Shown piece after piece: positions 22,554 to 23,705 of a stretch of 31,464 nt of DNA. Position 1 is the first letter of the stretch, and the number at the start of each line of letters is the position of its first letter. Below the pieces are notes generated by a model. That model saw nothing but the letters and a program-made list of their open reading frames with translations. It did no database searches and was not told where the DNA came from. The stretch covers positions 1 to 31,464 of the IMG/VR virus record IMGVR_UViG_3300028591_003415. One strand, given 5' to 3'. Source of the DNA: a virus. Position numbers and translations under genes: made by a program.

Positions 22554-23705
22554 ATGAAAGATGTAAAAATTGTAATTGGTGCTAATTATGGCGATGAAGG
22601 CAAGGGTCTTTTAACTCGGCATTTTGCTATTGATGCAATTCAGAGCCAGAAGAAAGGTATTATTATTCTTCATAACGGCTCTGCTCAGCACGGGCACACC
22701 GTAGACTATGACCCTTATTTTCGTCATGTCTATCATCACTTTGGGTGCGGGACTGCTGATGGGCTACCTACTTATTTTGCTGATACTTTTTGGATACATC
22801 CTATGGAGTTCGTAAGAGAATATACAGAATTGGCAAAATCTGGTATTTATCCTCGATGTTTTTATAGTCCACTTGCTCGCATTATTACACCTTTTGATAT
22901 GTTGGTAGATCATGCTACTGAGGCTTGGATTGCTCTTGACCATGGAGAACGCGAATATGGCTCTTGTGGATATGGTACTTGGTGTGCTATTGAAAGTCGT
23001 GGATATGATAATGTTTTTTCTGTATATGAGTTTCAGACTTATGATTACAATTATTTAATGAATGAAACTTGGGATAGATGTATTACCGTTCTTATTCAGC
23101 GTGGAGTTGACGTAGAAAAACTTCCACAGTATAAAGATTATTTTATTCCTAACTCATGGAAGAAACAGCGTCTTATTGAAAATTTTAAAAAAGACTTTGA
23201 TTTCTTTTTTGCAAAAAGTACCCCTTTCTTTTTTAATAGTATTTACTCACATTTTGACAGTCTTATTTTTGAGAATGGCCAGGGGCTTGGCCTTGATATG
23301 AATGTTGATAATGATTGGCATACTACTTCTAATACTGGTCTTACAAATCCAGTAGAAATGTTGAAGGATAAGGAAGATTTTTCTGCCGAAGTTTGTTATG
23401 TCTCTCGTTCTTATCTAACTCGTCATGGCGTTGGCCCTCTTGAAGAGTCAGCAAAAAAGACTGAAATTAATACCTCTATGGTAGATAAAACTAATATGCC
23501 TAATGAGTTTCAGGGATCTTTGAGATTTGGCTATCTTGAAGATAAAGAGCAGAGCAAACGGATTGAAAAAGATTGGTTACTCGTCGCAGATGATAGCCGA
23601 TTCAAGCAGGCTATGGCAATTACTCATTGCAATGAATTTGAAGACATTTATAAAAAGGCAAAGTATTTCAGCAATAATCCATTTACTGTGCTGAATAGAG
23701 GATAA
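22554..23705 (+). CDS. Adenylosuccinate synthetase family protein (PurA/PurZ-like), 383 aa. Shorter than canonical PurA.
   Basis: P-loop region VIGANYGDEGKG corresponds to GTQWGDEGKGK. HNGSAQHGHTV corresponds to GGHNAGHT. GSCGYG corresponds to GTTGRGIGP. FENGQGLGLD corresponds to FEGAQGTLLD. RHGVGP corresponds to RVGAGPFP. Confidence 0.7.
   Translation: MKDVKIVIGANYGDEGKGLLTRHFAIDAIQSQKKGIIILHNGSAQHGHTVDYDPYFRHVYHHFGCGTADGLPTYFADTFWIHPMEFVREYTELAKSGIYPRCFYSPLARIITPFDMLVDHATEAWIALDHGEREYGSCGYGTWCAIESRGYDNVFSVYEFQTYDYNYLMNETWDRCITVLIQRGVDVEKLPQYKDYFIPNSWKKQRLIENFKKDFDFFFAKSTPFFFNSIYSHFDSLIFENGQGLGLDMNVDNDWHTTSNTGLTNPVEMLKDKEDFSAEVCYVSRSYLTRHGVGPLEESAKKTEINTSMVDKTNMPNEFQGSLRFGYLEDKEQSKRIEKDWLLVADDSRFKQAMAITHCNEFEDIYKKAKYFSNNPFTVLNRG

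Follow-up and report, generated by a model that had tools for sequence, protein, structure and literature searches.

Two groups of enzymes provide the closest described relatives of the phage protein studied here. PurA (EC 6.3.4.4; E. coli, PDB 1CG0/1CG3) is the adenylosuccinate synthetase of textbooks, and PurZ/PurZ0 (PDB 6FM1, 7ODX, 7VF6) is the N6-succino-2-amino-2'-deoxyadenylate synthase of Z-genome phages. A serine where E. coli PurA has Asp13 is the criterion for PurZ/PurZ0 (PMC12884076, PMC8342488), and it was found in 100% of 147 phage PurZ/PurZ0 (PMC12884076). The sequences of the third clade described below are left by the latter study among "other PurA homologs", presumably in the root of its tree (PMC12884076). 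The literature that was searched contained no paper tying a vWA gene to a PurA-like gene or characterising this clade. As regards gene organisation, a parallel is offered by the MoxR-vWA machines (CbbQ/CbbO, NorQ/NorD), in which a P-loop NTP-using protein and a MIDAS vWA protein also form a conserved gene pair. The likeness appears to be organisational only, since a PurA-type (SIMIBI-class) ligase fold is found here instead of an AAA+ ring ATPase.

The window, that is the whole stretch of 31,464 nucleotides analysed (IMG/VR record IMGVR_UViG_3300028591_003415), gave a single 71-nt match in a nucleotide search against phages and so has no close sequenced relative. In this phage TAG is read as a sense codon. 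Neither an Rfam family nor a tRNA was found when the window was scanned for them. The features discussed are listed in Table 1.

Table 1. Features of the window surrounding the PurA-like gene
Feature	Position	Strand	Basis or remark
Terminator-like hairpin, 14-bp stem and T-run	20717..20749	+	Upstream of the Met-rich gene
Met/Asn/Gly-rich-tailed protein, 251 aa	20810..21565	+	No family match
vWA-domain partner, 296 aa, phrog_2971	21568..22458	+	MIDAS-like motif D73-V-T-G-S77-M-G; structure search
Terminator-like hairpin, 16-bp stem and T-run	22463..22499	+	Between the vWA and PurA-like genes
Promoter-like site, TTGATT-17-TATAAT, extended TG	22493..22521	+	Consensus match only
PurA-superfamily enzyme, third clade, 383 aa	22554..23705	+	ORF, Pfam, AlphaFold model, residue alignment
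Metallophosphoesterases, three	10144-10989, 24290-25039, 26621-27199		

A PurA-type fold with a short C-terminus

The start codon of the PurA-like ORF is an ATG with AGGTGA ahead of it, and the stop codon is TAA. Its product is a true relative of adenylosuccinate synthetase at the level of superfamily and fold, in agreement with the initial annotation of the gene as a homologue of that enzyme. The protein matches the Pfam family Adenylsucc_synt (PF00709) with 66.9 bits (E 1.8e-18; cut-off 27), the alignment spanning only positions 1-282 of the 416 in the profile. Structure prediction was needed because a sequence search of the PDB gave weak N-terminal PurA matches alone, PurZ being absent. The AlphaFold model (pLDDT 90.3, pTM 0.91) had 43 significant matches when the PDB was searched with Foldseek, and these were exclusively PurA, PurZ and PurZ0 (E 3e-16 to 1e-7; TM 0.5-0.71). 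Ligand-bound structures of E. coli PurA were the top ones, and the fold shared with that enzyme is reflected in TM values of 0.65-0.70.

The initial annotation had also drawn attention to the length of the protein, near that of PurZ and about 50 aa under that of PurA, and these figures hold (383 aa versus 343-359 aa for PurZ and 432 aa for E. coli PurA). Nevertheless the two proteins are short for different structural reasons. In PurZ some 40 aa are lacking from the stretch that joins the P-loop to FExxQG, which has 164-170 aa in PurZ, 208 in E. coli PurA and 226 in the PurA-like protein; the latter retains the helical middle region of PurA that PurZ lacks. The PurA-like protein owes its shortness to the part after the motif equivalent to TKLD, where it has only 23 aa, compared with 98 in E. 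coli PurA and 47-52 in PurZ; about 75 C-terminal residues of PurA, including S414-G-P, are missing from it, as is the C-terminal GFGP segment kept by PurZ. Judging from the sequences, the likeness in length to PurZ is coincidental. TAG recoding as an artefactual origin of the short C-terminus is ruled out, as the ORF stops at TAA and contains no in-frame TAG.

Residues kept and replaced in a third clade

The P-loop of the protein reads G13-D14-E15-G16-K17-G18, with D14 equivalent to E. coli D13, and H48, Q243 and T258 are the counterparts of H41, Q224 and T239. The catalytic core of canonical PurA (Asp13, Lys16, His41, Gln224) is present as D14, K17, H48 and Q243, and it is likewise present in 155/155 members of the clade to which the protein belongs. 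This clade keeps GDEGKG with the catalytic Asp, the His of GHT, the Gln of FExxQG and the Arg of TR.G.

The substrate-binding elements are different. Among the ligands of the IMP 5'-phosphate and ribose (Asn38, Thr129, Thr239, Val273), T239 alone is retained. N38 and T129 are two of the three residues that bind the 5'-phosphate. N38 is replaced by Q (Q45; 154/155 clade members), T129 by C (C138; 147/155) and V273, the ribose-contact Val of PurA, by H (H291 in the motif "TRHG"; 155/155). The aspartate loop, GATTGRRRR in PurA, has become Q320-G321-S-L-R324, the general form in the clade being (F/W)-Q-G-(S/T/N)-(L/I)-R, with T301 changed to Q, R303 to S/T/N and R305 to L/I; the Thr-Thr is gone and one Arg (R324) is left. 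The alignment of this loop is ambiguous, with the gap placed differently in two MAFFT runs, and the Thr-Thr and Arg residues are restored in no register. In place of TKLD (K331, D333) the protein has T357-H-C-N360, which departs from the guanine-specificity motif (N/T)KxD, and ATP-using PurZ has also lost the guanine-specific Asp of this G4-like motif. The C-terminal base-binding segment is absent and no STGP segment was found. The replaced positions are invariant within the clade, a pattern that indicates selection for a new function and not decay. Q45, C138, H291, Q320 and R324, placed by sequence alignment, are the putative pocket residues. Since the invariant R324 and the TR.G arginine persist, aspartate may be bound in a different geometry.

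Canonical PurA is ruled out by these replaced aspartate, IMP-phosphate and guanine-specificity elements together with scores of about 40 bits where about 400 are required (TIGR00184, 39.2 bits versus 395.55; NF002223, 42.9 bits versus 402). The identity of the protein to every reference is 15-21%, and to PurA it is only 18-21%. The phylogenetic placement recommended by the initial annotation was carried out by neighbour joining (NJ) with Poisson distances, few references and no archaeal PurA, and the protein fell outside PurA and outside PurZ+PurZ0 in a clade of its own, with bootstraps of 200/200 for this third clade, 200/200 for PurA and 199/200 for PurZ+PurZ0. The choice between PurA and PurZ that had been put forward was sound as to the superfamily, but neither option holds: the protein belongs to a large, previously uncharacterised third clade of the PF00709 superfamily, with its own invariant residues and partner gene, which is neither PurA nor PurZ.

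The clade comprises at least 1,096 clusters at 50% identity (E<=1e-30). Its signature, which is our own definition drawn from 155-161 loci, consists of GDEGKG, AQxGHT, GSCG, TRHG and FQG..R plus an adjoining same-strand MIDAS-type vWA gene, and every element of it was found for the protein of the window. The carriers are large phages of Mycobacterium, Vibrio, Rhizobium and gut bacteria, from gut, rumen, soil and marine habitats, and also bacterial chromosomes. Among the relatives are those of cluster C mycobacteriophages (Alice gp249), of Vibrio phages pv27/Va1 and of Rhizobium RHph phages as well as PHROG 1211, which have the same Q/C/H/Q residues and a vWA gene upstream. These relatives are only 22-33% identical to the PurA-like protein and, unlike it, have a longer C-terminus, with an STGP-like motif in some. 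The name of PHROG 1211, "2-aminooxy adenylosuccinate synthetase", appears to have been transferred from PurZ, and only part of the third clade is included in this PHROG.

The vWA partner and the genes upstream

PurA genes have no counterpart to the association with a vWA gene that is almost always seen here. In the window the two genes are 95 nt apart. The vWA gene adjoins the PurA-like gene in 77/80 IMG/VR loci, directly upstream in 76 of them, and it was found in 74/80 genome loci, the other six being without upstream sequence (74/74 assessable). The reverse check of the pairing gave 75/76. Both genes share the strand in 159/159 cases, and the gap between them is at most 50 nt in 110/147 (median 19 nt). 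Taking all related loci, the vWA gene lies within about 2 kb in almost every one, and with a single exception it stands directly upstream. Mycobacterium phage Alice, Vibrio phage pv27 and Rhizobium phage Y65 all keep the pair although they have no other neighbours in common; in Alice the kinase-like gp246 comes first, followed by the vWA gene gp247, which contains an intein, and then by the PurA-like gp249. The partnership is not strictly obligate, because rare phages (loci L010 and L192) have the Met-rich/vWA pair without the enzyme. The vWA fold of the partner is confirmed by the structure search, a NorQD vWA subunit being among the matches, and its N-terminus carries a conserved MG.GSW.

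The Met-rich gene is found upstream of the vWA gene in 88/166 loci, mainly in gut-type phages, and in bacteria and mycobacteriophages its place is taken by a J-domain or Zn-ribbon pseudokinase gene. Homology between the Met-rich protein and these proteins was not detectable and is rejected (hhalign probability 0.3%). None of the defence-system models of PADLOC matched the PurA-like enzyme, its vWA and Met-rich neighbours or the J-domain protein of Massilia; Alice gp246 alone was matched, to generic kinase models.

One observation from the window counts against the partnership, namely that a hairpin and a promoter-like site lie between the vWA and PurA-like genes. The promoter-like site is followed by the AGGTGA, 7 nt before the ATG, and the PurA-like gene of this phage may have a transcript to itself. 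The hairpin preceding the Met-rich gene would delimit a Met-rich/vWA unit.

Possible function of the cassette

We give about an even chance to the reading in which this third PF00709 clade, neither PurA nor PurZ, consists of phosphoryl-activating ligases with a changed second substrate that are coupled to a vWA protein. With an NTP as donor, the enzyme would phosphorylate the base carbonyl oxygen of a nucleotide, by default guess a 6-oxopurine nucleotide, and the phosphate would then be displaced by an amine nucleophile other than free L-aspartate bound in the manner of PurA. Enzyme and vWA protein would form a functional unit, probably a complex, joined by a third, variable component, which would be the Met-rich protein here and the J-domain or Zn-ribbon pseudokinase elsewhere. 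The module is a portable cassette common to large lytic phages and bacterial chromosomes, and this distribution suggests a part in taking over the host, in conflict or in nucleotide-derived signalling more than in the bulk supply of AMP. As to the amine, it is conceivable, if rather improbable, that PurA chemistry with its 6-phosphoryl-purine intermediate attaches an amine other than L-aspartate to C6 of a purine nucleotide. The product could then be AMP made straight from IMP with ammonia or glutamine, in which the Cys138/His291 pair could participate, or an N6-substituted adenine nucleotide serving as a signal or nucleic-acid precursor, or else a nucleotide bonded covalently to the vWA partner, for example to its conserved N-terminal Gly after removal of the Met.

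The gene could instead be an auxiliary metabolic gene for a divergent but genuine adenylosuccinate synthetase (IMP + L-Asp + NTP -> adenylosuccinate), raising the supply of adenine nucleotides during infection while the host PurB finishes the step. We consider this unlikely. The retention of the catalytic Asp, His and Gln, of T239 and of the TR.G arginine agrees with it, as do the ligand-bound E. coli PurA structures among the best matches, the annotation of relatives as "PurA-like adenylosuccinate synthetase" and the frequency of nucleotide-metabolism genes in large phages, the window itself having a dUTPase. Nevertheless the score is ten-fold under the PurA equivalog cut-offs, and none of T301, R303, R305, N38, T129, V273, K331/D333 and the C-terminal base-binding segment has been kept, with the clade-wide invariance of the replacing residues speaking for selection. 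Moreover, a gene that boosts metabolism would not require the vWA partner that accompanies it in about 97% of loci, and the cassette sits among unrelated genes in the chromosomes of Massilia, Methylobacterium and Hungatella, bacteria that presumably possess a normal purA too. It is equally necessary to consider a PurZ/PurZ0-type enzyme (dGMP + Asp -> N6-succino-2-amino-dAMP) in a phage whose DNA contains 2-aminoadenine (Z), an idea raised in the initial annotation that we now regard as scarcely credible. Besides their comparable length, both proteins are phage-borne members of one superfamily, PHROG 1211 with its PurZ-style name was matched at 1e-30, and a Dut-like enzyme is used by PurZ0 phages (PMC12884076); however, the dUTPase of the window is 15 kb off, on the minus strand. 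The diagnostic site is occupied by Asp in this protein and in 155/155 clade members, and by Ser in 5/5 PurZ/PurZ0 references. With NCBIfam NF038379 (amino_Aden_PurZ), whose cut-off is 300, the score is 16.5 bits and comes from just the N-terminal 47 residues, and neither the TTVT tip of the PurZ aspartate loop nor the F/Y adenine-stacking residues are present. While 5/5 reference Z-phages carry datZ/mazZ/dpoZ/PrimPol-type genes within 3 kb of purZ, tblastn at E<=1 gave no match to DatZ, MazZ, DpoZ or PrimPol in either the window or some 250 related loci, and Pfam scans of the window ORFs revealed no HD, MazG or polymerase domains; MazZ was uninformative as a probe, since tblastn with it recovered S-2L itself only. 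The initial annotation had likewise seen no DatZ or MazZ in the window, and the dUTPase and three metallophosphoesterases that it listed were all found. In addition, DatZ homologues occur in 94 phage records, whose ten commonest genera listed do not include Mycobacterium, yet 202 Mycobacterium phages carry the third-clade enzyme. As far as the sequence can tell, PurZ identity is ruled out by the Asp site, the NF038379 score, the separate placement in the tree with full bootstrap support and the lack of datZ/mazZ/dutZ/dpoZ neighbours in the window and the related loci, and the third-clade enzyme very probably does not make 2-aminoadenine DNA.

The ligase chemistry may also have been lost altogether, leaving a subunit that hydrolyses NTP or senses nucleotides within a vWA-based complex for remodelling or switching, after the model of the MoxR-type ATPases paired with vWA proteins (CbbQ/CbbO, NorQ/NorD). 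The tight coupling to a MIDAS vWA protein, which recalls NTPase-vWA pairs, is in line with this proposal, and so are the match of the partner to a NorQD vWA subunit and the strong remodelling of both substrate-binding sites; the J-domain or pseudokinase third component suggests protein-protein regulation. However, the residues required specifically for base activation and not simply for holding an NTP (catalytic Asp, His and the purine-contacting Gln) are invariant in 155/155 members, which fits retained chemistry better, and the invariance of Q45, C138, H291 and Q320 argues for a defined small-molecule pocket. For these reasons we think it quite improbable and prefer the ligase with a changed second substrate.

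Third-clade enzymes are at present labelled "adenylosuccinate synthetase" or, via PHROG 1211, PurZ-type, and such labels make it easy to predict Z-genomes wrongly in hundreds of phages, among them about 200 mycobacteriophages of cluster C. The recognition of a separate clade, with a set of invariant putative pocket residues of its own and a vWA partner that is near-obligate, corrects these labels and defines a widespread cassette of phages and bacterial chromosomes. Its function is directly testable because culturable carriers exist, namely Mycobacterium phages of the Alice/Bxz1 type, Vibrio phages pv27/Va1, Rhizobium RHph phages, Massilia and Hungatella. Should the second substrate indeed be something other than aspartate, a textbook enzyme family would gain a new reaction; and if one of the C6-amine variants is true, it would represent a new reaction class for the fold and a new three-gene cassette of phages and bacteria.

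A third clade of PurA-like enzymes

The ORF that the initial annotation proposed as a short PurA or PurZ homologue is a real gene, with a ribosome-binding site (AGGTGA) 7 nt 5' of its ATG, and its product does belong to the PurA family. The protein matched the Pfam Adenylsucc_synt profile with 66.9 bits (cut-off 27), over profile positions 1-282 of 416, which are only the first two thirds. Its AlphaFold2 model, built with 80 homologues in the input (pLDDT 90.3, pTM 0.91), gave significant PDB matches exclusively to PurA, PurZ0 and PurZ structures (E 3e-16 to 1e-7), with TM scores of 0.5-0.71 and sequence identities of 11-19%. 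The genomic context was also described correctly, since three calcineurin-type phosphoesterases and a dUTPase were found in the window, and no DatZ or MazZ homologue was.

The possibility of PurZ was not borne out. PurZ and PurZ0 are defined by a Ser replacing the catalytic Asp13 of PurA (PMC12884076, PMC8342488), a Ser present in 100% of 147 phage PurZ/PurZ0 sequences (PMC12884076) and in our five references (S-2L, phiVC8, Burkholderia BCSR129, Acinetobacter 2AB-P and Microbacterium Cicada). The P-loop of the target is GDEGKG, unlike that of PurZ, and the Asp is also found in all 155 relatives with an intact P-loop. The NCBIfam PurZ model scored the target at 16.5 bits against a cut-off of 300. 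Moreover, in all five reference Z-phages a gene for DatZ, MazZ, a Dut-like protein or a polymerase is no more than 3 kb away from purZ, and tblastn with the DatZ, MazZ, DpoZ and PrimPol of S-2L and phiVC8 gave no match (E<=1) either in the window or in any of the fetched family loci. As the window covers 31 kb of the phage, it is the relatives and the residues that speak for a lack of Z-genes in the rest of its genome. Of 50,697 phage records, 94 have DatZ homologues, with Mycobacterium outside the ten commonest genera listed; relatives of the target are carried by 202 Mycobacterium phages. The PurZ-like length is genuine but accidental: about 40 aa of the middle region are missing from PurZ but present in the target, whose shortness comes from about 75 missing C-terminal residues. 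The Asp, the PurZ-model score, the absence of Z-genes from the loci searched and this other cause of shortness rule out PurZ, to which we attach hardly any probability.

A neighbour-joining tree (49 sequences, 370 columns, Poisson distances, 200 bootstraps), a crude method applied to few references and with archaeal PurA left out, placed the target and 40 relatives in a third clade (bootstrap 200/200), apart from PurA of E. coli, Listeria and a gut contig (200/200) and from PurZ plus PurZ0 (199/200). HMM scores, residue signatures and the fold search all agree with this grouping. The clade is large, since phmmer against 1.84 billion cluster representatives returned 1,096 clusters at E<=1e-30 and 3,221 at E<=1e-10. 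Among its known members are the proteins called 'PurA-like adenylosuccinate synthetase' in about 200 cluster C mycobacteriophages, and those of Vibrio phages pv27, Va1 and phiKT1024, of Rhizobium RHph phages and of the human-gut phage MT835469. Relatives number 472 in IMG/VR and 409 in bacterial genomes and MAGs (among isolates, Massilia, Methylobacterium, Ruminococcus flavefaciens and Hungatella effluvii).

A published survey counted 481 phage PF00709 homologues, of which 147 were assigned to PurZ/PurZ0, at most a handful were PurA and the remainder were 'other PurA homologs' (PMC12884076); most of this remainder is evidently the third clade. No paper characterising the clade was found in a literature search of incomplete coverage. 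PHROG 1211, which the clade matches, bears the name '2-aminooxy adenylosuccinate synthetase', and the PurZ-style name has passed to RefSeq phage records such as Alice gp249 and Y65 gp019, although these have Asp at the diagnostic site. Such naming of PHROG 1211 relatives is probably a systematic mis-annotation.

Probable TAG recoding and other genes of the window

TAG appears, almost certainly, to be a sense codon in this phage, as is known in gut phages (bioRxiv 10.1101/2021.08.26.457843; PMC9523058). No credible gene in the window ends in TAG, and about 20 contain it in frame. When TAG is read through, fragments fuse to full-length genes that pass Pfam cut-offs, and the length covered by open frames grows from 21.6 to 27.7 kb. 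The homologue residues aligned to TAG were Q (37), E (31), D (25) and Y (23); no suppressor tRNA was found in the window. TAG-free genes (the module of Met-rich, vWA and enzyme genes, and those for the MVP-like protein, RNA ligase, SPFH protein and phosphoesterases) are interspersed among TAG-containing ones. As the three module genes are TAG-free and end in TAA, their boundaries are unaffected. The LAGLIDADG insert of the radical-SAM/SPASM gene is most likely an intein, rather than a sign of three separate genes.

Features of the window (TAG, number of in-frame TAG codons)
Feature	Position	Strand	Remarks
Radical-SAM/SPASM gene with in-frame LAGLIDADG	3732-6077	-	781 aa in total; TAG 7; readthrough
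RuvC	7084-7593	-	TAG 9; readthrough, Pfam	
dUTPase	7572-8090	-	TAG 1; readthrough, Pfam	
YAcAr/SLOG protein	9593-9970		
Major Vault Protein-like protein	11449-13896	+	815 aa; MVP repeat and shoulder domains (Pfam, 72 and 37 bits)
GIY-YIG gene	14966-15730	+	TAG 5; readthrough, Pfam	
RNA ligase	15711-16985		
DUF2726 gene	17039-18055	+	TAG 14; readthrough, Pfam	
Met/Asn/Gly-rich-tail protein	20810-21565	+	Upstream of vWA gene
vWA partner	21568-22458	+	296 aa; directly upstream of enzyme gene
PurA-like enzyme	22554-23705	+	383 aa; stop TAA
AAA_33 kinase	25984-26460		
SPFH/flotillin protein	27816-29207		
PIN-PhoH	30088-31386	+	TAG 8; readthrough, Pfam	

The MVP-like protein, the YAcAr/SLOG protein, the RNA ligase, the AAA_33 kinase, the three phosphoesterases and the SPFH protein look like an RNA-repair or conflict-type set. 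To our knowledge, vault-like proteins are unusual in phages. Inside the YAcAr/SLOG gene, 71 nt (9837-9907) are 86% identical to Cellulophaga phage phi18:3 ('GTP-binding domain'); no other stretch of the window matches a deposited phage at the nucleotide level.

The vWA partner and its cassette

The vWA partner shares 37% and 33% identity with the ORFs directly upstream of the enzyme gene in Vibrio phage pv27 and Rhizobium phage Y65, 56% with the corresponding ORF of MT835469, and 41% over 126 aa with part of Alice gp247. Besides the partner, no further neighbour is common to these lineages. In 77 of 80 IMG/VR loci a homologue of the partner is encoded on the strand of the enzyme gene and no more than about 2 kb from it, upstream in all of them (76) except L088, where it is downstream. 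In genomic loci it is upstream in 74 of 80, the six exceptions having less than 750 bp of upstream sequence. The reverse search from the partner recovered the enzyme in 75 of 76 loci. Of 166 loci whose ORFs were clustered, 161 had the enzyme and 155 had the partner; the pair was co-stranded in 159/159 cases, with a median gap of 19 nt (<=50 nt in 110 of 147 loci). Thus the two genes are genetically coupled. In the window they are separated by a strong hairpin with a T-run and by a promoter-like site, so the enzyme may be transcribed separately there.

The partner has no Pfam match and belongs to phrog_2971 (function unknown). Its AlphaFold model (pLDDT 81.6) matches integrin beta-I, vWF-A1 and pilus-adhesin vWA domains, and a MIDAS-like D-V-T-G-S-M-G motif and an MG.GSW N-terminus are conserved. 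The mycobacteriophage partner, Alice gp247 (3942-5726 of the fetched locus L006), has 594 aa because a Hint/intein-like insert, with weak Pfam Hint and Intein_splicing matches, splits the vWA domain. Three Ruminococcus-type genomes (L132, L111, L144) have two tandem vWA paralogues before the PurA-like gene instead of one.

The slot further upstream holds the Met-rich-tail protein in the window and 87 other loci, mostly of gut-type phages. In 57 loci (51 bacterial, Alice gp246 and five IMG/VR phage contigs) it holds instead a protein of about 345 aa, with an N-terminal J-domain (HPD motif) or zinc ribbon and a C-terminal protein-kinase-like domain whose HRD motif has another residue in place of Asp; no homology between the two proteins was detectable. 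Rarely, the Met-rich/vWA pair occurs without the PurA-like gene, in the 191-kb gut phage contigs L010-L013 and in L192, where a 77-aa ORF and a SprT-like gene follow the pair. The enzyme is thus dispensable for the pair in some phages.

The Massilia cassette is surrounded by ordinary metabolic genes. In 30 bacterial loci (L128, L129, L139, L154, L118 and 25 more) a gene for a NUDIX hydrolase with a C-terminal wHTH, an NrtR-like architecture as judged by sequence only, lies beside the cassette, often divergently. Two genes upstream of the Met-rich gene, the near-identical phage contig L008 carries a NADAR gene (8272-8712), and in Rhizobium phage Y65 genes of PRTase-like and NMNAT/NUDIX type lie 2-5 kb upstream. 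Such neighbours could be a hint of some connection with NAD or ADP-ribose metabolism.

Substrate site and proposed reaction

In PurA, according to the work of Honzatko and Fromm, L-aspartate is reportedly bound by T301, R303 and R305, the IMP phosphate by N38, T129 and T239, and the ribose by V273, and the guanine of GTP is said to be read by K331, D333 and S414. Part of these assignments is restated in PMC8342488. When 155 family members were tabulated against E. coli PurA, D13, K16, H41, Q224, L228, T239 and R272 were kept, and N38 was changed to Q (154/155), T129 to C (147/155) and V273 to H (155/155, hence a TRHG motif). In place of the aspartate loop GATTGRRRR the family has (F/W)QG(S/T/N)(L/I)R, without Thr-Thr and with a single Arg, the loop alignment being ambiguous between runs. 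K331 is H or C, and most phage members, the target among them (THCN), have N for D333. The target moreover lacks the C-terminal segment bearing the S414-G-P base-binding motif. As the replacing residues are invariant across phages and bacteria, these patterns indicate selection for a different pocket and disfavour decay.

The base-activating and phosphotransfer residues are therefore retained in the family, and those for aspartate, phosphate/ribose and guanine reading are replaced in a clade-specific manner. The cellular PurA offered as the other choice fails as well: the equivalog models gave 39-43 bits against cut-offs of 395-402, and together with the replaced substrate-site residues this rules out a canonical PurA. 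Plain PurA activity in the AMP pathway, which would sit with the retained residues, is accordingly held to be unlikely. A role as a non-ligase NTPase or sensor seems quite unlikely, and the same slight weight is given to ligation to another amine, which might produce AMP by direct amination, give an N6-modified nucleotide or link the nucleotide covalently to the vWA protein.

The reading that we prefer, with roughly even confidence, is a composite suggested by the residue pattern and the gene coupling. The enzyme would still use an NTP, which would not be recognised as a guanine nucleotide, to phosphorylate a base carbonyl; an amine other than L-aspartate bound in the PurA manner would then displace the phosphate, and the vWA protein would be the functional partner of the enzyme.
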